From positions 320,001-384,000 of the forward strand of contig JAHQJS010000004.1 in assembly GCA_019057385.1 (NCBI GenBank): 64,000 bases of DNA, given 5' to 3'. This DNA comes from Candidatus Borrarchaeum weybense. Its GTDB lineage: Archaea > Asgardarchaeota > Sifarchaeia > Borrarchaeales > Borrarchaeaceae. Shown here in pieces: positions 4,751-58,841 of the stretch (within the stretch, counting starts at the first letter, position 1; every line of letters starts with the position of its first letter). A program made the translations under genes and the position numbers. The notes under the pieces are model-generated. The model saw nothing but the letters and a program-made list of their open reading frames with translations. It ran no database searches and had not been told where the DNA came from.

Positions 4751-5593
4751 ATGCCTGAAGGACCTGAAGTCGAATGCACTAGACAATATCTACAGTCATT
4801 AATTGGGAAGACAGTGAAGAAAATTCAATTAACAGAACTTTCACAAAAATATCCCAAATACCAAAATAGGCAATCAGACTTTGATTGGTTCAAGGGACAA
4901 CGAGTAACTGATATTGAGAGGATAGGTAAATTTTTAGTTTGGCATTTTAATGGAAAGATTATTTTAAATCACCTAGGCATGTCAGGTAAGTGGATTCTCT
5001 TAAAAAAAGGTAATCAGAAGTTGCCTTCACATTCTAAGGCTCTGATGTACTTTGAAAAATACCCTCAATATGCTGTTTTTGATGATATTAGAAATTTTGG
5101 ACAGTTTAAAGTCTTTGAAAGTTATGAAAAAGTGATGCAGCACGACCCAATAAGAAAAATGGGTATAGATGGATTAGCAAAACCATTCCCGATGAAAGAA
5201 TTTCTCGCCAAAATCAACAAGCCAAACTACGCAAATAGGGAAATTGGCGCGGTATTAGTGGATCAGAAATTAGTAGCGGGGGTAGGCAACATCTATAAGT
5301 CAGAATCATTAGCTTTGGCAAAAATAAATCCAACTCGACTTGTAAAAACCCTCACCAAAAAAGAAAGAAAAGAACTTGGTTTAGCAATATCAAAAACGCT
5401 CTGGAAGGCAGTTGATTGCAATGGAAGTACCTTTAGCACGTTTCAAATTCCAACAGGTCAAGAAGGATCTGCGCAAAACTGGCATAAAGTCTATGGTAAA
5501 CATGGTGAAATATGCCAAAACTGTAAAACAGAAATAATCCGTATTGTCCAAAATGGAAGAAGTACCTTTTTTTGCGCTGAATGCCAAAAATGA
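4751..5593 (+). CDS. mutM: Formamidopyrimidine-DNA glycosylase (Fpg/Nei family)
   Basis: Starts MPEGPEV (ATG at 4751); HLGMSG, DIRNFG, GVGNIYKSE, C-terminal CxxC..RSTFFCxxCQ Zn finger. Confidence 0.92.
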   Translation: MPEGPEVECTRQYLQSLIGKTVKKIQLTELSQKYPKYQNRQSDFDWFKGQRVTDIERIGKFLVWHFNGKIILNHLGMSGKWILLKKGNQKLPSHSKALMYFEKYPQYAVFDDIRNFGQFKVFESYEKVMQHDPIRKMGIDGLAKPFPMKEFLAKINKPNYANREIGAVLVDQKLVAGVGNIYKSESLALAKINPTRLVKTLTKKERKELGLAISKTLWKAVDCNGSTFSTFQIPTGQEGSAQNWHKVYGKHGEICQNCKTEIIRIVQNGRSTFFCAECQK

Positions 5594-17018: not shown

Positions 17019-17945
17019 TCAAAGAAGCAATGTTAGAATTGCCTTTTGTGCATGTAATCTGTTTTCCGCTTGATCCCACACAACTGAATTAGGTCCATCA
17101 ATCACCTCGTCAGTAATTTCTTGACCGCGATGTGCTGGAAGGCAATGCATTACAATGACATTTATTAGTGCATTGTTTAGTAATTCTTGATTTACTTGAA
17201 ATGGTGGAAAAACTTCCATTCTTTCCTCTGCTTCAGCCTCTTGCCCCATTGAAATAAAGGTATCAGTATAGACAACATCTGCATCAAGAACTGCGTCTTG
17301 AGGATCGTGAACTATCTGAACTTCAGAATCAAATATTCTTGCGTTGTCTTTTGCTAAATCAATAACATCTTCTAATGGTTCATAGTTTTCCGGACAGCCC
17401 ACTGATATATTGATGCCTAGTTTTGAGCATCCTATAAGTAAAGAATTACAGACATTATTTCCATCTCCAACATAGCTTATCTTCAAATTCTCAAAATTTT
17501 TCCTCTTCTCCTTAATAGTCAAAAGGTCAGCCAATATTTGACAGGGATGGAATAAATCACTTAGACCGTTTATAACTGGGACTTGTGAGAAATCTGCAAG
17601 ATCTAATAAGTCTTCATGTGAGTAAACACGTGCCATAATTCCATCTACATATCGGGCTAGTGTACGCGCAGTATCAGGGATAGTTTCTCCTCTACCAAGT
17701 TGCAAATCTTTTGCGCCTAAAAATAGGGCATAACCTCCCAATTGGCGCATAGCCACTTCAAAGGATACACGAGTTCTAGTACTTGATTTTTCAAAAATCA
17801 TAGCTAATGTTTTTCCATTTAGTATCTCAGACGACTCTCCACGAAGATACATCTTCTTAAGATCGCTCGCAATATCCAACATATAATGAATTTCTTCAAA
17901 TGAAAAATCTTGCAATGTAAAGAAATCCTGTCCTCGAATATCCAT
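17019..17945 (-). CDS. argF: Ornithine carbamoyltransferase
   Basis: SSTRTRVSFE, HPCQ, SMG, HCLP, QAENRLH. Confidence 0.96.
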   Translation of the reverse strand: MDIRGQDFFTLQDFSFEEIHYMLDIASDLKKMYLRGESSEILNGKTLAMIFEKSSTRTRVSFEVAMRQLGGYALFLGAKDLQLGRGETIPDTARTLARYVDGIMARVYSHEDLLDLADFSQVPVINGLSDLFHPCQILADLLTIKEKRKNFENLKISYVGDGNNVCNSLLIGCSKLGINISVGCPENYEPLEDVIDLAKDNARIFDSEVQIVHDPQDAVLDADVVYTDTFISMGQEAEAEERMEVFPPFQVNQELLNNALINVIVMHCLPAHRGQEITDEVIDGPNSVVWDQAENRLHAQKAILTLLL

Positions 17946-18010
17946 AAGGTCCTCCTCCTTTTTCTAAATAGGAGTTAACTAACTTAATTTAAGATCTAAT
18001 AATAATTATA

Positions 18011-18940
18011 TTATATAGCACTTTCTGGTACGATCTTTTCAGCAAACTTTTTAGGATAAAATGCATCTAGATCTTTGTATTCTTGACCGATTCCAATAAA
18101 TACAATGGGCTTTTTCGTAACATGAGCAATAGAAATAGCAGCCCCTCCTTTTGCATCAGCATCAACTTTAGTCAGTATTGAAGCATCAATACCTACAGCC
18201 TCATTGAATTCGCGAGCTTGTTCGACGGCATCATTACCAGCAAGACTGTCTCCTACAAAGACTGTAATCACATTCGCGTCTTCGATTCGTTTAAGAACAC
18301 GAACGATCTTTTCCATCTCTCCCATAAGGTTCTTATTGGTTTGCATTCTCCCAGCAGTATCAATTAGAACAATATCTATGTTTTTTGCAATTGCATGACT
18401 AACAGCATCAAAGGCAACAGCAGCAGAATCCGAGCCATATTTGTGTTTGATTACTTTAACTCCAAGTTTGTTTGCATGAATTTCTATTTGCTCTATGCTT
18501 CCTGCACGGAAAGTATCCGATGCTGCAAGGACTACAGAAAAACCCTTTTTTTGGAATAGACTAGTAAGCTTGGCTAAAGTTGTTGTTTTTCCTGTACCAT
18601 TAACTCCTAAAAATACAATCGCTAAAGGTTGCCCCTGTTCTTTGCCTTTTTTTGCTAACTCAAAAAGATCTATACCCTCTACTTTAAGGATTTCTAGAAT
18701 TGTATTTCTTAAGGCACTATAGACGAATTTCTTTGTGCTCTTAAGACGACCTACCTTCTCACCAGTCAACTGTTGTTTCATAAGTTCTCCAATTTCAGCT
18801 GCCACGGAAAATGCAACGTCGTTTTGTATTAATATTATTTTCAAAGATTCAAGAACATCCTCTAACTGGTCTTCACTCAATGTCTTCGATGATATTTTTT
18901 CTGTAAAACCCTGAAGACCACTTCTTAGTTTTTCAAACAT
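18011..18940 (-). CDS. ftsY: SRP receptor FtsY (first 38 codons apparently supplied by the island)
   Basis: GVNGTGKTTT, DTFRAG, DTAGR, TKVDADAKGG, GIGQ; start MFEKL at 18940. Confidence 0.95.
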   Translation of the reverse strand: MFEKLRSGLQGFTEKISSKTLSEDQLEDVLESLKIILIQNDVAFSVAAEIGELMKQQLTGEKVGRLKSTKKFVYSALRNTILEILKVEGIDLFELAKKGKEQGQPLAIVFLGVNGTGKTTTLAKLTSLFQKKGFSVVLAASDTFRAGSIEQIEIHANKLGVKVIKHKYGSDSAAVAFDAVSHAIAKNIDIVLIDTAGRMQTNKNLMGEMEKIVRVLKRIEDANVITVFVGDSLAGNDAVEQAREFNEAVGIDASILTKVDADAKGGAAISIAHVTKKPIVFIGIGQEYKDLDAFYPKKFAEKIVPESAI

Positions 18941-19263
18941 AGATGTTTTCTCTCCGAGCATATGAAGCATTAAGGATTGATTGATTGCTTGACGCAAGTT
19001 TGTGACATATCAATCAGGTTTTTTAATATACGTTTTGATTCCGAATTTGAAAACTCAATTTTATCGAATAATTATTCAAAGAACATTTTAACACGCATTC
19101 ATCTCTTGTTGAATTATAAAAGATGTTATATCTGATGAGGATGTCTTACCTATTTTATAGTATTCTTGAGCAATAGTATGAATATATGTCGAATAGCTTT
19201 CTTTTATAAAAAATGTGAAAAATGCCCTTTTTCTCTTATATCAGATAATAATTAAGAATAACG

Positions 19264-19304
19264 AAAGGAGTGAGATGATCAGCACAAAACCGATCATCTC
19301 CTTT
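19264..19304 (-). terminator. Hairpin closing guide RNA 1 (terminator or 3' processing signal)
   Basis: AAAGGAG-TGAGATGATC ... GATCATCTC-CTTT inverted repeat just downstream of spacer 1 on the minus strand. Confidence 0.55.
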
Positions 19305-19310
19305 TGGATG

Positions 19311-19470
19311 ATTTCAGCTGCGACAGAAAGCGCGACATCGTTTTCGTGGGTATGACATTTTTCGTCCCTTGCGAGTCATCCGTCCCCTTCGATGAGGCGT
19401 CGGACCTCTCAGGTTCAGTCTCATGCACAAGAACGTGTCCCTCATGTTTTATGAGGAACATACCGCCTTG
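19311..19470 (-). ncRNA. Putative guide RNA 1: scaffold (19346-19436 core) plus 35-nt ftsY-matching spacer (19311-19345)
   Basis: Scaffold repeated at 20452-20546; spacer 28/35 identical to ftsY 18792-18826; own TATA box (TTTATATA, 19498-19505). Confidence 0.8.
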
Positions 19471-19541
19471 CAACTCATATATTCGCTTACAAAGACCTAT
19501 ATAAACACCACTCTTCATAACAAGGACTCCCAGTTCCATAC

Positions 19542-20354
19542 TTACATGTCCTCTTTCAGGTCATCAAGATAAAGGTTGACCATTAATAAGAGATGGTTTT
19601 TCAAAGAAGAAAAACCATAGGTTAGTGCTTCGTTGATTTTATCAAGGTCATTGCATTTTCGAATAAAGGTATAAAGTGCAAAAGGAGAGTATTGGCGCAG
19701 TTCTATCTCTCTTTTTAACGCGTTGAAATCTATCTCTTCTGATTCTGCTACATGATAACGTGAAAATGCAGTCCATCTAAATTTTCGAGAAATCATTGCA
19801 GACCATCTATCATAATTTTGTAGTAAAGAAAGCAGAGGAAAGTCTTTTTCATCTATAGTATAATTATGATGGTTCTTTGCGAGCTGATAGACTTCGTCAT
19901 TAATTATATCAACATCAGTATAAATTTTGCTTGGATGTCGATCAGTGCTTACAAAATCATGCAGGAGCATTGCTATAATTAACTTTTCCTGCACATCTGA
20001 GAGTTTTGGAAGTTTCTTACGTATGTTAATCTTTCTCGAAATATAGAGGGGTTTTTTCTTGAATTCACTCACAGAAGTCCAAAAGATTTGTCCCACCCCC
20101 TCACATGTATAACTCCCGACACTATCAATAGCTAGTGCTTTTTCAAGTTTATGTTCTGGAACGATGAACTCAACATTACCAAACCATGCCCTAAAGGTCA
20201 TTGGAGCACGTCTTTGTCCTACCGTTAATTTTCCGAATACCCTGGGACGACCATTTATAGTCATCGCACCAACATCGGTAACTCCAAAATGTCTACGCCT
20301 TGAAACGATAGGAGTTTTTGTATAACCAATCAATTTAAAGTATTTTTGTGACAT
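19542..20354 (-). CDS. Cas5-like RAMP fused to HD nuclease domain
   Basis: N-terminal beta-rich RAMP ending in G-loop VGSYTCEGVGQI; LLHDF..NHH..YDRWSA and C-terminal SLKNH. Confidence 0.7.
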   Translation of the reverse strand: MSQKYFKLIGYTKTPIVSRRRHFGVTDVGAMTINGRPRVFGKLTVGQRRAPMTFRAWFGNVEFIVPEHKLEKALAIDSVGSYTCEGVGQIFWTSVSEFKKKPLYISRKINIRKKLPKLSDVQEKLIIAMLLHDFVSTDRHPSKIYTDVDIINDEVYQLAKNHHNYTIDEKDFPLLSLLQNYDRWSAMISRKFRWTAFSRYHVAESEEIDFNALKREIELRQYSPFALYTFIRKCNDLDKINEALTYGFSSLKNHLLLMVNLYLDDLKEDM

Positions 20355-20404
20355 TTATTCCCCTCATTTGAGGTTTTACCTCCTCTTTAAACAAAAGAGA
20401 GGAG

Positions 20405-20570
20405 ATATAAACCTTGCCAAAGTAAACACGTTTGCAACTGTTGTTTGTAAAGTGGGTATGACATTTATCGTCCCTTGCGAGTCATCCATCCCCAATAATC
20501 GAGGCGTCGGACCTCTAAGTTGGTTCAGTCTCATGCACAAGAACGTATCACTCACATCAGTAGGTGATAG
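20405..20570 (-). ncRNA. Putative guide RNA 2: scaffold (20452-20546 core) plus spacer matching the cas7 promoter
   Basis: Second scaffold copy; 20405-20451 aligns to 21454-21501 (42/47 identities, one gap); followed by a CTCCTCT/AGAGGAG hairpin. Confidence 0.8.
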
Positions 20571-20608
20571 ACCGTTATGAGATGAGAAAAAAAGTTGAGA
20601 TAAATATG

Positions 20609-21418
20609 TCACACAACCACCTTCTCACCCTGTCCACTCATAAGATTCAAAGAAGTTCTCCAACCCTCGATATTACTTAGAGTTAGTGGAGTTTCAGTGG
20701 TTTCTTCGATAATTTTATAATTTCCTTCACTATCCTCTCCGATTCTTCGAATAGTTTCAACCTTCTGAAGAGCAATATTAAGGATCTTGACGCAACCATA
20801 ACCACTTGCCCGTCCTGCTCCAAGAATTTCTACGTAGAGCATTGCCTCTATAAGAAACTTGATTTCACCATCAGTTAAGTTAGTCACATCAATGTGAAAG
20901 GAAAAAAATCCGCTGAAATAACTCTCACGAAAGTCTTGGATAGGAATACCATCATAGGCAAGAGCTATCCTATTTTCGCTAGCGATGTGGACATTTTGAA
21001 CAGGCACTTCAGTTGTGTATTCCTTATGTTTAATCGAGACAATAGGATCTGCAGCGACAACAATAGAGGACTTTTCGCGGAAGGTGCCAAAGATTGTTCG
21101 GAGAATACAGGGAGGATCACATGTACCAAGCGCATGAAACCCTTTCGGAAGAACACTTTTACCATCTTTAAGCGCTGTTTTCTCAGAACTGTGACAGACT
21201 TCAATGTTGCAGTCTTGAGCAAGCTCCATACAGGCATGTCTTAGCATTCCTCGGATACCTTTAATGTAATAAAACTTAGTATTGAATGTCTTTGAACTGT
21301 TTGTGTAAGGAAGTTTCCCTAACAAGAGCATGCTAGAATTTTTCTGAATCGAGGCATTGATAGGCTTTGCTATGGGTGTAAAGGCATGAATAACTATCTG
21401 TTTTTTGATTTTTCTCAT
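20609..21418 (-). CDS. Cas7-group RAMP (Csm3/Csf2-like backbone subunit)
   Basis: TPI near N-terminus, KGIRGMLRH, Cys cluster ..C..PCILRTIFG, ENRI, C-terminal G-loop LGAGRASGYG. Confidence 0.82.
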   Translation of the reverse strand: MRKIKKQIVIHAFTPIAKPINASIQKNSSMLLLGKLPYTNSSKTFNTKFYYIKGIRGMLRHACMELAQDCNIEVCHSSEKTALKDGKSVLPKGFHALGTCDPPCILRTIFGTFREKSSIVVAADPIVSIKHKEYTTEVPVQNVHIASENRIALAYDGIPIQDFRESYFSGFFSFHIDVTNLTDGEIKFLIEAMLYVEILGAGRASGYGCVKILNIALQKVETIRRIGEDSEGNYKIIEETTETPLTLSNIEGWRTSLNLMSGQGEKVVV

Positions 21419-21452
21419 GTTTCCAACCTCAGATATATTTAGTACAAGTACC

Positions 21453-21501
21453 TATATAAACCTTGCTCAAAATAAACACTTTTCCAACTTTTGTTAGTAA
21501 A
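21453..21501 (-). promoter_or_regulatory. cas7 promoter (TATA/BRE region); predicted target of guide 2
   Basis: TTTATATA at 21453-21460, ~35 bp upstream of the cas7 ATG; same ACCTATATAAAC context as the guide-1 promoter. Confidence 0.75.
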
Positions 21502-21764
21502 ATGGGGATTAAATTGACTTCCATTTTAGAAATAAAGCATTTTTAACAGTTTTTAGATGAAAAACCATCGAATATTTAGTGCCTGCTTTATAAATAACAA
21601 AGTCAAGCAACAATTTACATCATCATCTCTTTAAAAGAATAAACATATGATTTAACAAAATTAAGCGATTACGAGAATTCACAAGGAATACATTAATGGT
21701 GTCAACTAAACTAAAAAATGTTCTTAAAAGAATAATTGTACCATTGATGGTTGCTAATAAATCA

Positions 21765-24700
21765 TTAGGGCAAAAGATCCTTAACTATAACTGGAGGACC
21801 TTTTTTCTGTGGTGTATAAATTCCCTCCATGTGTTGAAACCTTTCAAACATTAGAAGAAGAGCTTCTTTATCTGGAGCATAAATAAAGGGGACGAATCGC
21901 TTCTTTTCTAGCAAAAAATCCTTGAGTTGTAGTGCGCACTGCCTTATAGCATCCTTTACTGTCATATATTCATCCAGATAGTATATCTCTTGATTAAGTA
22001 TATCACCAACCAGTCTCTCAACTTTGTAGTGCCCGTTCCACGTTAAATGATAGAATCGTTCACGCTCTAATGTTTTACGTATCTTAAAATCGGCTTTTGT
22101 AAATTTACCATATATACATGCTAAGATGAAGGTGAACCTGAATAGGGGAAGAAACATCTCTCGGAAGTCAACGACGGTGCCAAGAAAGGATCGCCGTGTT
22201 TTCTTAAAATGCAATATCAGTTCATCGGGCACCCATGAGAACCCTACTTCAGCGAGTGCTTTTCGACAGTAAAAATTAAGATGGCGATAGACGGCATTGA
22301 GTGCCGCACTAAAGGGAGTTCGCGCCTTTGCTTCACCCAGAAGCACCACTGTGGCAATATAGCGATCGAGGGTACGACTAATGATCTCAAAGTAACTGCC
22401 TTGCAGCAAATGCTTGGGAACCTCCCAGGCAACGCTTTCCACTACCCCTTCAAGACCGCGAAGGTTGTCAATATTGCCCCGCCAATAGAGAAAAGTGTAC
22501 GCCACGCGATCCAGCAGTTGGGATAAGAATTCCTGTGCCTCCGCAGAAGATAATATCCCCTCTTTTTCAAACCAGAGAATTGCATTGGCGAGCCCCATAT
22601 TTTTACCCATCACCAGCAGCCTCGCTAATAACGTGCCTCGTTCCGTCCCTCTGAGTTGCTGGGCGGTGTGTTTCAGTTCATCAGCTAATTGTTGTTTCTC
22701 TGGTGTCAGTGTATGCTGTGCAAAGAATCTGCCTTCGGGCGAATTAATATCAATGAGTTTCTTGCCATAGTTCTTACGAACTAGTTGCGAAACTTCTCCA
22801 CCCTCGATGATGATGTGACAGATAGCACCGATTAAATATCGATGTGTTGTTTTCCCGTCCTTTAGTGCATGAGCAAATCGTTTTTTCTTAATATCAAGCC
22901 GTTCACCGCACTTGACACGAATGGTTCGTTTTGGTCGTCGAATGTAAACCTTTGTTTTTTTAACCCGCGGGACATAATTTCCGGGCTTGCCTAAAAGCAA
23001 ATCCAATCCTTTTAGCATCAAACCTCGGTTGCCTGGTTTCACCACCAAGTCACCTTTCATGGTCAAATAATAGCGGGAATTGCATTCGGGACAGACTGTG
23101 TATTCATTATAGCAGGATGGCAATTCCACCGTACCGCCGGAGTAGCAGAAGTAGCACGGAGTATCATCGAGTGTTTCTTGTATGGCACTAATTGTGCGCT
23201 TTTTTAACTCCCGCGCTTTCTGATGGTATTCGCAGGCACCCATCTTTGGTGCGGCATAGGATTTCCTTTCTTGCCTTCCAATTTTTGTGTTATACTTTTG
23301 ATTCAACACACAGATATGTGCACGTTTCGATCTGCGACGATCCTTCATAGAATTTATCCGAAAGAAGCCACATGAACCACAGGTGAGCCGCAGATGTTCA
23401 GGAATACTCATATTCGCGTCTGCCACATAGATTTTAGGGCGACCTCGTAACTGCCCTCGAGAGATAAATTGGATTTTTCCTTGGATTCCTAACTTCTTTG
23501 CATGTTTCACTACCGTAGTATGGTGAACTGGTCGATTATACTGTTTACGAACCTCTGACGTAATTTGTGCGTAAGAGATGACCTTATATTGATTAATAAT
23601 GTTATAAATTGCTTCTTGAAGTCCCGGATATGGTATCGGTCTGTACTTTGGATACCTGCGTCTCCTTCTGCCTTTGTTCCCTCTTTCAACTTCAGGCTCT
23701 TTGTATTCAGGATTTAGTTTTGTGGTAAGTTTTTTGGCAACCCTTGCCGCCCTCGGGTCACTGCGCCCCAGATAGTCATAACTTGCTTCTGCGATCCACG
23801 ACGCCGTCTTTCTATGTGCTTCTGCATCACCCGGTCGTATGTTTACCCGAGTTGCAGCTTTTGTGACCGAAGAACCCTGACTGAGTAACCATACGAAAGA
23901 GGCATATTGCTGGGCGGTATATCGTGTGGTGTTGCTCACTTCATGTATGCTTCGACCGATTAGTGTAATTACGTGCCGGGAGAATTCCCGTTCTGAGGAG
24001 CAATGATGTGTGGCAAAAAACTTCTTGATCCTTAAGGCGGTTTTAATCGGCAGTAAAAATTGGCTGGCCCAGCGTCCTTTGGCTGTTGCACTAAACTTTC
24101 CACCATTTCTTTTGATAAAACCTTCCTTGATAAGTGTGTGAAGGATTCCCTCTCTTTTTTTCTTCGGTTCATCCTGCTTAGGTCGAGCTAACAGTTTCTC
24201 TCTTAGTTGTTGTGTAAAGTCTTTCAACTGGTCGTGGGTGAATGGTGTCAACAGTAAGCGAAGCTCTCCGTTTTTGACCCCGCGTGTAGTGGTGTTCTTC
24301 TTGACCCACATGAAGAATTTTCTCGTTACACGTTTCAAGTCGAATGGGAGAGAGCCTTCGTGCGTTTCGCGCAATAAGGACAGTAAATGAAGTTCGTTAT
24401 TGAGCCGACAAAGCTCCTCTTCCTGGTTCATGAGTGCGTTATTCATTAGTTCGGACCAATTCTGTAGCAATGCTTTGTGTTGATGCCAGAAGTAATGTCT
24501 TTCAAGTTTGTGAAGTAATTGATTCGTGGATGCCGAGCCTCTAGCTATCAGGGTGAGTACAATATCTGCCAAAGAAGAACGTGCCTGGCTTGTTATACGA
24601 TGTTCTTTGACTATCAATTGTCCCTCGACGATTTGTATCTCCTTTTGCTTCAAAATTTCTTGATCGTCCCCCACGAAGATCAGATCAGCATAGCCCACCC

Positions 24701-25775
24701 GATGATGGCGCGGTCGTGCCGCCCTGCCACTCAATTGTATCAACAGGTGAGGGTTGAACATCCCGGCATCGGCAATTATCACCCGTTTGATCGGAAAGTC
24801 CACCCCCTCTCCGTATTGAATCGTTGACAGAAAAACCTGAAATTCACCCTTCTTAAGCCGTCTCATAGCTTCTTGTTGTTCCTCTTTACTGAGCCCGGCG
24901 TGACTGTAGCCCACGGTGAGATCGAGTCCACAACTCTTAAGAAAGGACTGCAACTCTATAGCTCGTTGTTCAACCTGATTTCGTGTGTAGCAAAAGATGT
25001 GCACGATTTTAGTCCCCTGATCATCACCATACGAGCGTTGTTCAAAGGTCTTTTTGATCAAGCGAGCGAACAGAAAGCGTTTTTTTCGTTCAATCTGCTC
25101 TATGGTGCTGCCTGAAACCCCACAAGATGACACAATAAGCTTCGACTGCCGTTCGTTGGTATGGATAAGTTGAGCGTCAAGCCAACTTACCAGTTCCTCG
25201 GCATTCCCCAGAGTAGCCGAGAGATAGATGATATGCGGGCGAGGGCGTAACCAAGATCTTGCATTGACGATTGCAGTTTCTAGGCGAGCACCCCGCCCTT
25301 TGTTGCCCAGATTGTGCAGTTCATCGACCACAATCAATCCTATCTTGTCTAAAAACGGATACTCGAAATGCTTAACTAGCAGTCCATTGAAGGATTCGTA
25401 GGTGCTGATGAGGATATCCGCCGTTTCAAGCTCTTCAGGAGACGAACGGTCATCTCCGCTGACTTTGAGGATGGTACAGGCGTCGTGATACCACTCTTTG
25501 AACTTGTCATACATCTGATCGATCAGCCGTTTGGTCGGCTCAAGAATTACACAGCGCATCCCTTTTCCAAGCACGCGGGTAGACACTATTTGGGATATCA
25601 AGGTTTTTCCCGAAGCGGTAGGAGTGTACAACACCTTGTCCTGCCTTTGTTTACCAGAAAAACATGCCTCCCATTGAAAGTCGTAGAGGGCGTTAATGTC
25701 AGCCTGTTCCAACCGTTGACGTATGAATTCGTAGTTTAACCCTCTTTTCGTCATTGTAATGAACTGGCCTCTCAA
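21765..25775 (-). CDS. Ski2/Hel308-like SF2 helicase - HTH/Zn-finger linker - divergent Cas1 integrase fusion
   Basis: Helicase: PTASGKT, DELH, SAT, HAGL, QLSGRAAR. Cas1 (~21765-22950): LRGLEG, PFSAALNAVY, ILH, DFREMF. Start may be ATG 25754; TATA box at ~25810. Confidence 0.82.
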   Translation of the reverse strand: MRGQFITMTKRGLNYEFIRQRLEQADINALYDFQWEACFSGKQRQDKVLYTPTASGKTLISQIVSTRVLGKGMRCVILEPTKRLIDQMYDKFKEWYHDACTILKVSGDDRSSPEELETADILISTYESFNGLLVKHFEYPFLDKIGLIVVDELHNLGNKGRGARLETAIVNARSWLRPRPHIIYLSATLGNAEELVSWLDAQLIHTNERQSKLIVSSCGVSGSTIEQIERKKRFLFARLIKKTFEQRSYGDDQGTKIVHIFCYTRNQVEQRAIELQSFLKSCGLDLTVGYSHAGLSKEEQQEAMRRLKKGEFQVFLSTIQYGEGVDFPIKRVIIADAGMFNPHLLIQLSGRAARPRHHRVGYADLIFVGDDQEILKQKEIQIVEGQLIVKEHRITSQARSSLADIVLTLIARGSASTNQLLHKLERHYFWHQHKALLQNWSELMNNALMNQEEELCRLNNELHLLSLLRETHEGSLPFDLKRVTRKFFMWVKKNTTTRGVKNGELRLLLTPFTHDQLKDFTQQLREKLLARPKQDEPKKKREGILHTLIKEGFIKRNGGKFSATAKGRWASQFLLPIKTALRIKKFFATHHCSSEREFSRHVITLIGRSIHEVSNTTRYTAQQYASFVWLLSQGSSVTKAATRVNIRPGDAEAHRKTASWIAEASYDYLGRSDPRAARVAKKLTTKLNPEYKEPEVERGNKGRRRRRYPKYRPIPYPGLQEAIYNIINQYKVISYAQITSEVRKQYNRPVHHTTVVKHAKKLGIQGKIQFISRGQLRGRPKIYVADANMSIPEHLRLTCGSCGFFRINSMKDRRRSKRAHICVLNQKYNTKIGRQERKSYAAPKMGACEYHQKARELKKRTISAIQETLDDTPCYFCYSGGTVELPSCYNEYTVCPECNSRYYLTMKGDLVVKPGNRGLMLKGLDLLLGKPGNYVPRVKKTKVYIRRPKRTIRVKCGERLDIKKKRFAHALKDGKTTHRYLIGAICHIIIEGGEVSQLVRKNYGKKLIDINSPEGRFFAQHTLTPEKQQLADELKHTAQQLRGTERGTLLARLLVMGKNMGLANAILWFEKEGILSSAEAQEFLSQLLDRVAYTFLYWRGNIDNLRGLEGVVESVAWEVPKHLLQGSYFEIISRTLDRYIATVVLLGEAKARTPFSAALNAVYRHLNFYCRKALAEVGFSWVPDELILHFKKTRRSFLGTVVDFREMFLPLFRFTFILACIYGKFTKADFKIRKTLERERFYHLTWNGHYKVERLVGDILNQEIYYLDEYMTVKDAIRQCALQLKDFLLEKKRFVPFIYAPDKEALLLMFERFQHMEGIYTPQKKGPPVIVKDLLP

Positions 25776-26228
25776 TTCCTGCCTCTCATTTACAATGGTT
25801 GCAAATTTCTATATAAAGAGGGGAACTTTTGGATCGCTGGCTCGAAAAACTATGTCACTTGAACTCTTCACAAACCAAAGCGTTTTCCAAATCAAATGCT
25901 ATTAGACACAAATTAGAGATCGTTACTTTCATTAATTGAATCTACACGAACTCTCACTAAAAACAAAATTGTAGCATTTATGAAAGAATTTTCAAATGAT
26001 AGCATCATTTGATAACGGGAACGTAATCTAATTTCGGGACGGTAAAATTATCGCTAAAACTAGGAATATGAATCTTTGAAATCATATAGGAGAGGAACTT
26101 CAACTCACTAGAGAGGCATAAGGATATGTGAAATCATAATTAAACAAATATGTCCAGCAAAAAATTACTAAGCTTTATTAGTTGCCAAGCTAATATCTAG
26201 ACGATTAATATGGACGCGGTTCGTAAAA

Positions 26229-28469
26229 ATGCCAACAGATGACCATTTTAAAAGAGGAATTGAATTCTTCAATCGAAAACAATACAAGAAGGCCATTAAA
26301 GCATTCAAGAAGGCTTTAACGTCAGACCAAGAACACTATGTGATATGGTACAACATGGGATTAGCTTTCTCGAAACTAGATAAATTCACTAATGCCATTT
26401 ATTGTTATAAAAAAGCCGTGAAAATTAACCCTGAGTTTGCAGAAGCGTGGGGCAACATGGGTGCTGCGTATCATGAGTTAGATAAGCTTAACAAAGCCAT
26501 CGAGTGCTTCCAAAGGGCATTGGAAATCAACCCTGAGTTAATAGACACATTAAACAATATGGCGGCAGTTTACATAAAATTAAATGAGTATAATAAAACT
26601 GTCGAATGTTATCAAAAAGTTTTGGAAATTGCCCCTATGAATAAAATCGCTTTGCATAATTTAGCTTGGGCTTATGGAAACTTAAATAATTATGAAAAAG
26701 CAGTTGAATATTACCAAAAGGCAATAAAAAACGAACCTGAATATGTATTCGCATGGAATAACTTAGGAGCGGTTTATGGAAAACTCGGTGAGTATAAAAA
26801 AGCCATTGAATGTTATGAAAAGGTCCTTAAACTTGACCCCATAAATGTAAAGGCATGGAAAGGCATAGAAATTGCTCACAGAAAATTAAACGAATTTGCT
26901 GAGGCAATTGAGTGTTGCCAAAGAGTTATAGAACTCAATTCTAGCGATATAGACACATGGAATAATATGGGCGTTTCCTACGGAGAATTGGGCGAATATA
27001 ATAAAGCTATCGCATGTTTTGAAGAAATATTAAGAATTGAACCCAATAACGCAAAAGCGCTGAATAACGCAGGAATTGCCTACGAAGGATTAAATGAGTT
27101 TAAAAATGCGCTTAACTATTATAAGAAGGCTTTAGAAATTGATCCTAATTATGTAGATGCATGGTACAACATGGGCAACGCCTATAAAAAGTTAGACGAA
27201 CACATGAAAGCAATTGATTGCTACAAGAAAGTCGTGGCAATTGACTCAGAGCATACAAAAGCATGGAATAATTTGGGCAATACCTATGAAAAATTAGACC
27301 TACATATGCCTGCGATCGAATGCTATGAGAAAGCGTTGAAAATTAACCCTGAGTTTGTTAATGCTTGGTATAACATAGGTAATGTCTATAGAAACTTAGA
27401 CGAAGACATGAAGGCGATTGAATGTTATAAGAAAGCTGTGGAAATCGACTCGAAGCACTCAAAAGCATGGGGAAATATGGGTGCCATTTACACGCTTTTA
27501 GGTGAACACATGTCTGCAATCGAGTGCTATAAGAATGCTGTAGAAGCTAGTCCTGAATATGCTGGCGCGTGGTATAACATGGGTGTGACCTATGTAGAAG
27601 TAGGCAAATACATGTCTGCAATCGAATGCTATAAGAAAGCATTGGAAATAAATCCCGATTATATAGATGCATGGACGGGGATGGGGATCGCGTATGCAAC
27701 GTCTGATAATTATAATAATGCCTTTGAGTCCTTTCAAAACGCATTGGACATCAATTCTGAAGATGTTGGTACATGGTACAATTTAGGTGTGACTTACAAG
27801 AAATTAGGAGAGCGTAACAAGGCACATGATTGTTTTAAAAAGGCTCTGGAGATCAATCCTAAAGATATATTGTCAGCATACAATATGGGGGCGATTCAAG
27901 CAGAACTAAATGCAGAAAAGAAGATCTCAGAATTAAAGAACGACGTTGATTTTCTGAAAGGTCAAGAACTAGAGAATAAGATAAGTGAACTTGTCGAGAA
28001 ATCGTATAGTTTTCAATGCAAAAGAGAATATCGTGTCCAAAAATTGGAGGACGAAGAAGTCGAAAAATTCATTGAAAGAGGTTGTTATAGAGAAAGTACT
28101 AAATCAGTTGAATTAGATGTAATAGCTATAAAGGAAGAAGCCAAAACTGGGAAAAAACGCCCTGCCATGTTACTTTGTGAGTGTAAAGCCAAAAATACGC
28201 ATACAAATGAAAAACAAATCAAATGTTTCCTTTTAAAGACAGAAATTTGGAAGAGAAAATTTACTGAATTTTATGAATCCATGCCTGATTATCTCGCCCC
28301 AGAGTTCATATTATGGTATGTTAGCTTAAAAGGATTTACCAGAAACGCTGAAACGCTAATAAATCAAAATAAGATTGAGCCCTTTGATCTTGAAAAATTA
28401 AACAAGGAATTGAAGAAAGTAAATATTCTAACAATTCCTAAGAGATTTATTGCAGAACAAGAAAATTAG
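26229..28469 (+). CDS. TPR-repeat protein with C-terminal PD-(D/E)xK (Mrr/restriction endonuclease-like) domain
   Basis: ~16 TPRs (AWYNMG..Y..AIECY.KAL.I.P); ELDVIA..CECK..VSLKGFT. Confidence 0.8.
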   Translation: MPTDDHFKRGIEFFNRKQYKKAIKAFKKALTSDQEHYVIWYNMGLAFSKLDKFTNAIYCYKKAVKINPEFAEAWGNMGAAYHELDKLNKAIECFQRALEINPELIDTLNNMAAVYIKLNEYNKTVECYQKVLEIAPMNKIALHNLAWAYGNLNNYEKAVEYYQKAIKNEPEYVFAWNNLGAVYGKLGEYKKAIECYEKVLKLDPINVKAWKGIEIAHRKLNEFAEAIECCQRVIELNSSDIDTWNNMGVSYGELGEYNKAIACFEEILRIEPNNAKALNNAGIAYEGLNEFKNALNYYKKALEIDPNYVDAWYNMGNAYKKLDEHMKAIDCYKKVVAIDSEHTKAWNNLGNTYEKLDLHMPAIECYEKALKINPEFVNAWYNIGNVYRNLDEDMKAIECYKKAVEIDSKHSKAWGNMGAIYTLLGEHMSAIECYKNAVEASPEYAGAWYNMGVTYVEVGKYMSAIECYKKALEINPDYIDAWTGMGIAYATSDNYNNAFESFQNALDINSEDVGTWYNLGVTYKKLGERNKAHDCFKKALEINPKDILSAYNMGAIQAELNAEKKISELKNDVDFLKGQELENKISELVEKSYSFQCKREYRVQKLEDEEVEKFIERGCYRESTKSVELDVIAIKEEAKTGKKRPAMLLCECKAKNTHTNEKQIKCFLLKTEIWKRKFTEFYESMPDYLAPEFILWYVSLKGFTRNAETLINQNKIEPFDLEKLNKELKKVNILTIPKRFIAEQEN

Positions 28470-28640
28470 GCTTAAAAGATCCTTCTAAACTTTCGACATG
28501 ACGTAATTGAACTAATAAAAATAAATAGCATAAAATGTGATAGATATGGAAAAAGTAGAAGCGTTTTCATGGTATTTTGTTAAAAATAAATGGCCTGATT
28601 TAATTAACCGTTTCCATATTTTTCCCATAGGACTTTTAGG

Positions 28641-29207
28641 TTGGTTATCAGAATAAAAACTACATATTATCCATCTCTTAATGTTCAACAAATTAACTTT
28701 GTCCAAACAATCCTTATAAGATGGTGGAAAGAGGAAATAAGTGCAAAAGGAAAAAGAGACTTTTTCTGGAGGAAATGGATACTTGATCCTAAGATGACTA
28801 CCGTCATTTTGGAGGATTTTTCGTTTCCTCGTGATTTTGGTATATTTTGTACTGAAACAGCCCTGCGAAAAACACGCGCTGAAACTGTAGAAATTCATTT
28901 TAGACCATTTTTCAGGAGGTTTCATAGTTTTCAAGAAGTTAAAGCTGCAGATACAAAAGAATTAAGAAAAGTCCTATACCCCCTAGGTCGTGTCTCCCAG
29001 AATGTACGAGACCTTAAACAACGGGCTACAATAATAATAAACGAATTTAATTCGGAAGTCCCATGTACTAAAGAATACATAAGACGTCTAATGAAAACCT
29101 ATACACGAAAAATCTTACTGGAACACAGTTTCGAACATGGAGATGCAATAAACAGTACTTTGGTGCCTTTGCCACAATTCCTCCATCAGCTAATTCTAAG
29201 AGATTAA
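28641..29207 (+). pseudogene. Truncated HhH-GPD DNA glycosylase (MutY/MIG-like)
   Basis: KRDFFWR, ETALRKTRAETV, PLG, EVPCTKE; similarity ends before the HhH motif and FeS cluster. Confidence 0.6.
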
Positions 29208-29281
29208 GAGGATACAACATTTAAACCTTTGTGTGAGACCTTTTTCGTCTACCGCAAGTCAATGACCTCATTATAAAATAG

Positions 29282-29407
29282 TTATACTAGAAAAAGAAGA
29301 ATTAATTGTAGTTCCCAGAGAACATCATCAATTTGATCTTCGCTTAAAGTCTTAGTGGATACCTTGTCAGCGAATCCTGTGAGACTCTTTTTTAACTTTT
29401 CAAACAT
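29282..29407 (-). pseudogene. Stranded original 5' end of ftsY (41 codons)
   Basis: MFEKLKKSLTGFADKVSTKTLSEDQIDDVLWELQLILLFLV*; 23/38 aa identical to the FtsY N-terminus; directly downstream of pfdA. Confidence 0.9.
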
Positions 29408-29469
29408 CTTAATTTCTCTCTATGAAGGTCACTTAAACAGTAATTGTTCAGAAAAAAGTAATATTGATG

Positions 29470-58676: not shown

Positions 58677-58841
58677 GTTGCAGAGTGAAAAACGATGATG
58701 CACTTACTGAAACATGCTTATGGGATACATTAAGTTTGCAGTTGTCAATGCAAGGTTGCAGAGTGAGAAACGATGACGCACTAACTGAGACGTTCCTGTC
58801 GCGAATCCAGCAGTAGCCTTAATCGTCAAAATGCAGAGTGT
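58677..58841 (+). CRISPR. Mini CRISPR array: two 37-nt repeats, a partial third repeat and two spacers (41 and 38 nt)
   Basis: GTTGCAGAGTGAAAAACGATGATGCACTTACTGAAAC (58677-58713), GTTGCAGAGTGAGAAACGATGACGCACTAACTGAGAC (58755-58791), AATGCAGAGTG (58830-); TTTATA at 58649. Confidence 0.7.

Follow-up and report, generated by a model that had tools for sequence, protein, structure and literature searches.

Cas1 is known as the spacer integrase of CRISPR (short palindromic repeats that are clustered and regularly interspaced) and as the transposase of casposons. To our knowledge, RNA-guided DNA insertion is known only for the Tn7-like CRISPR-associated transposons (CASTs), which insert about 50-80 bp beyond the distal end of their target. 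Another related kind of system, ARAMP (Asgard RAMP), was reportedly described by Makarova and colleagues in the CRISPR Journal in 2020, a description used here through review summaries. According to these summaries, ARAMP systems are array-less and derived from type III, carry nucleases and a 'distinct form' of Cas1, and have an 'enigmatic' mechanism (PMC8730458, PMC12669027). The locus studied here belongs to Candidatus Borrarchaeum weybense and lies in a 64,000-nt stretch of its genome (assembly GCA_019057385.1, contig JAHQJS010000004.1, positions 320,001 to 384,000; hereafter the window). Its central gene encodes a 1336-aa protein, hel-Cas1, in which a Hel308/Ski2-like helicase is joined to a divergent Cas1 domain, and is followed on the same strand by a Cas7-like RAMP gene and then by a RAMP-HD gene. 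The review summaries define ARAMP by an Asgard host, RAMPs of diverged Cas7-like and Cas5-like types, a nuclease, a distinct Cas1 and the lack of an array, and this module has all of these features. We see an even chance that hel-Cas1 serves as helicase and integrase for a small mobile element of Asgard archaea that finds its sites with RNA guides of its own, in the absence of a CRISPR array.

A helicase and a Cas1 domain in one polypeptide

Hel-Cas1 is encoded by a single open reading frame (ORF) whose listed start codon is TTG; an ATG at 25754 (M8) is the likelier start, as it agrees better with the alignment to archaeal Hjm, in which residue 16 of the query pairs with chain residue 10. By sequence, the N-terminal part belongs to the Hel308/Ski2 type of superfamily 2 (SF2) helicases, with Hel308 as its closest similarity. 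Pfam places a DEAD domain at residues 32-194 (3e-26) and a Helicase_C domain at 258-355 (1e-14), and Hel308-type helicases rank first in NCBIfam. The closest PDB structures are Hjm/Hel308 (2zj2, 9b15, 2va8, 2p6r); Brr2 and the Pol-theta helicase come next, and neither Cas3 nor DinG is the best match. Motifs I (TASGKT, 53-58), II (VDELH, a DExH box, 150-154), III (LSAT, 185-188) and VI (QLSGRAARP, 347-355) are intact. The accessory domains of Hel308 (winged-helix, ratchet and helix-hairpin-helix) were also sought: the alignment with Hjm (2zj2) ends at about residue 467-482, and a weak Pfam HTH_45 match lies at 545-568. The G+C content of the window between 22001 and 26000, which corresponds to hel-Cas1, is 45%. 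The RAMP gene, the HD gene and the flanking host DNA have 35-37%, and hel-Cas1 is alone in this deviation.

The C-terminal part is covered between residues 958 and 1234 by the Pfam family Cas_Cas1 (PF01867; 31.9 bits for a cut-off of 22.3). This domain is highly divergent, since an exhaustive search of 1.84 billion representative proteins returned just 25 relatives. The Cas1 region alone retrieved no Cas1 by phmmer against the PDB, and a family profile was needed, which was built from an alignment (A3) of 20 of the 25 relatives. The profile matches the Cas1 of A. fulgidus (4n06, residues 18-344, both domains; 4e-16) and the casposase of M. mazei (6opm; 4e-14). In A3, E1109, R1134, R1138, N1160, G1178 and H1189 are invariant and D1203 is nearly so. 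E1109 lies within LRGLEG, H1189 within LILH and D1203 within DFREMF, a motif it shares with E1206, and the E, N, H and D motifs are aligned by the profile, with E1109, H1189 and D1203 falling on the lEG, LH and Dl.E.fR motifs of 4n06 and 6opm. The AlphaFold2 model of the Cas1 part (pLDDT 83.8) consists of a beta N-terminal domain and a helical C-terminal domain; the top 50 Foldseek matches are all Cas1 or casposase, over about 370 aligned columns. The Cas1 part is thus modelled as a complete two-domain fold and, judging by its conserved aligned residues, it is apparently catalytic. As the catalytic residues remain invariant down to about 20% identity, integrase activity seems to be under selection.

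The original prediction, which was made on the letters of the sequence, had proposed precisely such a fusion, with intact helicase motifs resembling Hel308/Ski2 rather than Cas3 or DinG and with catalytic residues in LRGLEG, LILH and DFREMF. The single ORF with Pfam domains of both kinds, the agreement of NCBIfam and PDB, and the identity of the conserved residues bear these proposals out, and structure prediction, the check that it had suggested, returned a Cas1 fold.

The linker had been predicted to hold a winged helix-turn-helix (wHTH) and zinc fingers. Within its wHTH-like segment, TT, L, G and GRP are invariant among homologues about 35% identical, and all eight cysteines of its two clusters are invariant in a further alignment (A4). 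The clusters are probably zinc-binding, and the conservation of the linker fits a wHTH and two zinc modules. Here the conservation of both elements was confirmed, while their folds stay predictions from the sequence.

Hel-Cas1 is rare, occurring in 4 of 301 genomes of the phylum. The three genes and two scaffold copies recur in two metagenomic loci (L001 and L002) whose hel-Cas1 is about 35% identical to that of the window, and a third locus (L003; hel-Cas1 81% identical) has hel-Cas1, a homologue of the RAMP-HD gene and one scaffold copy, with the RAMP gene absent. The RAMP-HD family has H132, D133, H140, H162, H163 and H254 as invariant residues. In the model of this protein (pLDDT 85.7), the C-terminal domain resembles the HD domain of Csm1/Cas10 (6ifk_A, VIA Z 8.5) and the N-terminal domain resembles RAMP subunits (VIA Z 6-7.5); Foldseek reached RAMP subunits only at E ~0.01, so the VIA-wide search was needed. 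The ESM Atlas gave no useful match to RAMP-HD, and BLASTP detected no sequence similarity between it and the RAMP protein.

No CRISPR array was found in the window by TRF and repeat search. The sole Cas2 of the genome (C4:154630-154842) stands beside a canonical Cas1 about 185 kb away, so that the hel-Cas1 locus lacks the adjacent Cas2 and array of a CRISPR adaptation module. Pfam revealed no TnsB, TnsC or TniQ among the tested ORFs of the element, nor any match to an 81-aa ORF at 19294-19539.

Insertions that end at guide matches

Three congeners have pfdA followed by an uninterrupted ftsY, which reads ...CTTCTT and then GAAAACGATG... across the point of insertion. In the window, ftsY is split. 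The empty sites and the split gene together identify 18827-29293 as an insertion, with a boundary exactly at the first base of the match to guide 1. This guide (19345-19310) corresponds to ftsY codons 39-50 (18826-18791), with 28 of 36 positions identical. Logan contigs span both junctions of the window with 0 differences, and none of them has a junction that skips the element. Positions 17500-19491 of the window are matched at about 94% identity by a 2.1-kb soil-metagenome contig from another study, which extends over ftsY, its substitute 5' end and guide 1 into scaffold 1, so that this insertion is also present in a relative from elsewhere.

Two sister elements provide comparisons. The first (C3:91578-98503, 6.9 kb; hereafter the C3 element) contains only hel-Cas1, RAMP, RAMP-HD and the RNAs. 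Comparison with the empty sites of two congeners shows that its junction coincides exactly with the match to its guide. The guide is identical to the empty site at 31 of 36 positions and to the occupied site at 26 of 36, and this element also carries a substitute start of the gene that it interrupts. The second (the C5 element, ~10.6 kb) has its junction at most 8 nt from its guide match. Overall, two junctions coincide exactly with the guide match and one falls within 8 nt. For the C5 element, an interpretation of the terminal guide as a copy of the host sequence upstream of the junction was rejected, its alignment score corresponding to the 95th percentile of the null. At the nucleotide level, identity among the three elements is 77-87% and is confined to a core that starts about 70 nt upstream of hel-Cas1 and stops with the last base of scaffold 1; the guides and flanks are unique to each. 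The insertion lies at the guide-5'-proximal edge of the target, and the link between guide and choice of site is well supported. In the same vein, for four unique guides of this genome no site anywhere in it matches better than one located 176-1755 nt downstream on the same strand, and L001 repeats this pattern.

The occupied targets (window 18791-18826 and C3:91542-91577) match the empty sites at 29 and 30 of 36 positions, respectively, and the following 36-nt blocks do so mostly at 32-36 of 36. The greater divergence of the occupied targets, a matter of small numbers, could reflect an escape from self-targeting or co-conversion at insertion.

The guides follow a conserved non-coding element of about 127 nt, which is found 3' of both the RAMP and the RAMP-HD gene. 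This scaffold keeps long invariant runs although the hel-Cas1 proteins of L001 and L002 are so distant. Among its 26 copies, 96.9% of the cells are paired, compared with 44-55% in slid controls; compensatory cells number 45 against 13.9 in shuffles (none of 500 shuffles reaches 45), and 8 of the 10 pairs of hairpin P1 covary. By these measures, the scaffold is a conserved, structured and covarying RNA element. Rfam returned no match in the window at the gathering threshold, so the scaffold does not correspond to a described RNA family. The genome has ~25 scaffolds for 6 hel-Cas1, 11 RAMP genes and 12 HD-gene copies. The scaffolds form two classes: those after the RAMP gene are followed by a conserved segment starting with TTTAC, and those after the HD gene by a unique segment of fixed length (~36 nt) and then a hairpin.

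The TTTAC guide (guide 2 in the window) matches a sequence shortly before the RAMP gene of its own cassette, up to a TATA-like box. In all six cassettes tested, the two distant metagenomic loci included, the mismatches fall at +1, +7, +13, +19, +25, +31 and +37 after a conserved CCA, a single 6-nt register accounting for 4-6 of the 4-8 mismatches (hypergeometric P between 9e-6 and 1.5e-3 per cassette). Free drift at every sixth base is a hallmark of pairing on a Cas7 backbone, as in type I and type III structures. Guide 2 and its copy in the promoter region share one strand, which would make the template DNA strand, rather than the mRNA, the pairing partner of the RNA.

Table 1. Features of the window discussed in the text, with positions in the window
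Feature	Position	Strand	Basis
Target in host ftsY, at the insertion junction	18791..18826	-	Guide-1 match, empty sites
Whole insertion, 10,467 bp	18827..29293	.	Absent from three congeners; Logan contigs
Element-borne substitute ftsY 5' end (codons 1-38 + leader)	18827..18954	-	~70% identical to native remnant
Guide 1: 36-nt copy of ftsY codons 39-50, then hairpin	19310..19345	-	Genome match
RNA scaffold copy 1	19346..19472	-	Repeat search, conservation, covariation
RAMP-HD protein (gene 3), 270 aa	19542..20354	-	N-terminal RAMP/RRM + C-terminal Cas10-type HD domain
Guide 2, TTTAC... class, kept across cassettes	20405..20451	-	Comparison of cassettes
RNA scaffold copy 2	20452..20580	-	Repeat search, conservation, covariation
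Cas7-like RAMP protein, 269 aa	20609..21418	-	Pfam RAMPs 27.9 bits; 11 paralogues in genome
Guide-2 site upstream of RAMP gene, ending at TATA-like TTTATATA	21454..21501	-	Mismatch every 6th base
hel-Cas1 ORF, 1336 aa	21765..25775	-	ORF call, Pfam, NCBIfam, motifs; probable ATG start 25754
Cas1 domain, aa ~942-1336; E1109, N1160, H1189, D1203, E1206	21768..22952	-	Pfam, alignment, profile, AlphaFold2 model, Foldseek
Two Cys clusters: C799, C802, C822, C848; C874, C877, C895, C898	23082..23381	-	Alignment A4
wHTH-like segment, aa 751-784, HHTTVVKHAKKL..GRPKIYV	23424..23525	-	TT..L..G..GRP conserved
SF2 helicase core, aa 32-355, Hel308/Ski2-like	24711..25682	-	Pfam, NCBIfam Hel308, PDB Hjm/Hel308, motifs
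Cargo: 746-aa TPR protein, weak Mrr-like (PD-(D/E)xK) nuclease tail	26229..28469	+	Pfam
Native ftsY 5' end remnant beside pfdA	29294..29420 (codons 1-38: 29407-29294)	-	Empty sites

The surroundings of the module are those of an archaeal chromosome: Pfam identifies EMG1, prefoldin, eIF-6 and FtsY among the host genes of the window, and relatives of the neighbouring genes carry names such as Borrarchaeum, Promethearchaeota, Heimdall- and Thorarchaeota. The gene for the TPR protein lies inside the insertion but is absent from the sister elements, and is therefore cargo or a separate acquisition; the Mrr-like match of its tail (E 0.008) is below the cut-off. Within the insertion, some 30 nt from its right end, a 32-nt fragment (29230-29261) resembles the 3' end of the scaffold. 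As a partial scaffold it was rejected because the match is not significant genome-wide (E 2.9). An 81-nt stretch in this region is 85% identical to C3:20289-20365 in the same genome, and the fragment may be the relic of an older element. Beside the C3 element, a stretch of about 350 nt (C3:90930-91285; L017 ~4930-5285) is missing at the corresponding site of the congeners, although each of the four contains it many times over, as would be expected of a small repeat or a miniature inverted-repeat transposable element (MITE). Finally, two 37-nt direct repeats, 89% identical and 78 nt apart, are found at positions 58677-58791 of the window.

Possible roles of hel-Cas1

Several scenarios may explain these observations. 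In the one that we prefer, the scaffold with its 3' guide of about 36 nt would assemble with the Cas7-like RAMP and RAMP-HD proteins into a DNA-pairing complex similar to those of types III and IV. One guide would pair with the promoter region of the RAMP gene itself, suggesting autoregulation, and the other with a conserved host gene, where it would mark the insertion point at the guide-5'-proximal edge. It is plausible that the Hel308-type 3'-5' helicase would then engage the displaced strand of the R-loop, by analogy with Cas3 on Cascade R-loops, and the fused Cas1 would join the element DNA at the displaced-strand site. The substitute 5' end brought by the element would keep the interrupted gene functional. 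We infer that the RNA complex directs insertion. That hel-Cas1 catalyses it is a weaker proposition, for which the chances seem to us balanced. Yet an integrase role is the most economical one for this protein, as it is the sole integrase-like gene of the minimal 6.9-kb element and its catalytic residues are under selection. Taken as a whole, the module would represent a distinct class of RNA-guided mobile element, in which a Cas1-Hel308 fusion is directed by Cas7/RAMP-HD and non-CRISPR scaffolded guides, inserts into housekeeping genes where a 36-bp site begins or ends, restores the end of the gene and regulates itself through a second guide. We put this forward tentatively, as a proposal a little short of an even chance.

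A number of observations weigh against this scenario. Five of the ~11 cassettes of the genome do not have hel-Cas1, and one of these (C3b) is also inserted relative to a congener, with the loss of ~130 nt at the far junction, so that hel-Cas1 is not needed in cis. The C3b insertion (C3:61090-64705; L019 1091-4706) holds a RAMP gene, a scaffold and a guide that matches the 5' end of the adjacent 314-aa gene; its ORFs of 451, 353 and 376 aa belong to no Pfam or NCBIfam family, and the 451-aa ORF, the sole one compared, is unlike the Cas1 profile. Conversely, larger relatives of hel-Cas1 (2051 aa, L054 853-7008, and 2361 aa, L055 8001-15086) have no RAMP neighbours. They contain an additional 800-1000 aa without assigned function, and one lies beside a serine resolvase and the other beside a TnpB-like gene. 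The guides themselves raise difficulties, since 13 of the 17 unique ones have no nearby match and the identity of guides to occupied targets is only 72-78%. Borrarchaeota metagenome-assembled genomes (MAGs) contain solitary scaffolds that run exactly up to the ATG of an intact gene (L045 6526-6649, L052 161-286, L053 681-811), the genes coding for an acyl-CoA dehydrogenase (387 aa) and a glmM-like protein (456 aa). There, the first 36 nt of the gene itself take the place of the 'guide', much as in omega RNAs. Moreover, the elements show no terminal inverted repeats (the best terminal inverted match is 7-8 nt), no target-site duplication at the junctions and, when the sister elements are compared, no conserved sequence at either end. 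An integrase acting on defined DNA ends would thus have nothing obvious to recognise. The suggestion of the original prediction that the polypeptide recognises the element ends is unsupported in this light.

The last points would be congruent with homing by cutting and repair, in which RAMP/RAMP-HD cuts or nicks the empty site and host recombination copies or recombines the element in, the substitute end serving as homology arm and hel-Cas1 either just helping to unwind or process ends or being dispensable. The native remnant and the substitute end are direct repeats that stop exactly at the target edge, but with ~70% identity over 30-130 nt they are poor substrates for homologous recombination. 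In line with this scenario, the HD motif is intact and without variation; the Cas1 catalytic residues, however, are invariant too, down to about 20% identity, which speaks against it. Terminal inverted repeats and target-site duplications are absent and the C3b cassette was inserted without hel-Cas1, whereas the minimal 6.9-kb element retains this gene. On balance, we consider such homing unlikely.

Alternatively, hel-Cas1 could act in guide acquisition, like Cas1 with Cas2/3 in primed adaptation: its helicase would be drawn to R-loops, and its Cas1 would install a new guide of ~36 bp at the 3' edge of the scaffold, moving no whole element. The homology between sister elements does end precisely at the 3' end of the scaffold, where the guides start. 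Nevertheless, the hairpin, spacer region and substitute gene end downstream of the guide are element-specific too, and no old guide is seen shifted downstream. The fixed length of the guides and the presence of hel-Cas1 in only some cassettes, as with adaptation genes in CRISPR loci, would suit this alternative, and a coupling of helicase and Cas1 has a precedent in type I-F Cas1-Cas2/3 (10.1101/2025.06.10.658980). On its own, guide acquisition would leave the coincidence of the boundary of the whole element with the protospacer edge unexplained, and it appears less probable still than cutting and repair.

An array-less defence system such as that proposed for HRAMP/ARAMP, in which hel-Cas1 would attack invading DNA in the manner of Cas3 or DinG, as a helicase-nuclease, and the host matches would be by-products, would account for the intact HD motif and the many guides without a nearby match. 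It would also agree with the predicted defence role of these derived type III systems with nucleases (PMC8730458, PMC12669027). It is improbable, however: in four or more cases, guides match the host gene next to an insertion junction; the every-sixth-base pairing targets the module's own promoter region; and when one guide was searched among viral contigs with N at the flipped positions, in the only such test and a very strict one, it found no exact match.

Comparison with known systems

The preferred scenario, insertion by hel-Cas1 at guide-marked sites, can be placed among the systems presented at the outset. The review summaries of ARAMP name no RNA, guide or insertion behaviour (PMC8730458, PMC12669027), whereas the module described here has a scaffold RNA, guides and guide-matched junctions; a full-text search of the literature found no text on helicase-Cas1 fusions or ARAMP RNAs, ARAMP being known here through reviews only. 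If correct, our interpretation would provide the 'enigmatic' ARAMP systems with an actual RNA to work with and with a function that can be tested.

The omega RNAs of IS200/605 elements (TnpB/IscB) are similar in that a scaffold with a 3' guide sits at the element end, and some Asgard scaffolds abut host sequence serving as 'guide'. The effector here is nevertheless of the multi-subunit Cas7 type, with its 6-nt pairing register, instead of a RuvC nuclease, and there is no TnpA. The type I-F Cas1-Cas2/3 shares the physical coupling of Cas1 to a helicase of the R-loop-loading kind, but there a Cas3 helicase with an HD domain is fused to Cas2 and serves spacer acquisition into arrays, whereas here a Hel308-like helicase is fused directly to Cas1 and no Cas2 is nearby. 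With casposons, the module has in common a Cas1-family candidate integrase within a mobile element, which matches a casposase by profile comparison. In contrast to casposons, it lacks a family B polymerase, terminal inverted repeats and target-site duplications (the minimal element has three genes only), its choice of site is linked to an RNA guide and its Cas1 is fused to a helicase.

The similarity to CASTs (I-F3, I-B, V-K) lies in a mobile element that encodes an RNA-guided DNA-binding module, with a 'homing' guide that matches a conserved host gene beside the element; a guide-matching attachment site does adjoin the element end, with the junction at the guide-5' edge of the target. The original prediction had gone further and assigned to hel-Cas1 the tasks that TnsB, TnsC and TniQ perform in CASTs. 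The coincidence of the insertion point with a guide-matching site agrees with that idea, but the geometry, the intact HD and the absence of an array do not: insertion is at the guide-proximal edge of the target and not beyond its distal end, the HD nuclease motif is retained, CRISPR repeats and recognisable transposon ends are missing, and a Cas1-family candidate integrase stands in place of TnsA/B/C and TniQ.

The module thus resembles both CASTs and casposons in part and fails the defining features of each. It is a small system of three proteins and an RNA of about 165 nt, and its size, together with the absence of an array and of Cas6 processing, makes it attractive for reconstitution, for which the every-sixth-base signature and the empty-site junctions offer direct and checkable predictions. 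Confirmation would make this reading of the system new in kind. If hel-Cas1 is the joining enzyme, RNA-guided insertion would have arisen independently on a Cas1 chassis, and the element would be a Cas1-based counterpart of the CASTs with their Tn7-like transposases, and one that still connects casposons with CRISPR adaptation and with RNA-guided interference today.

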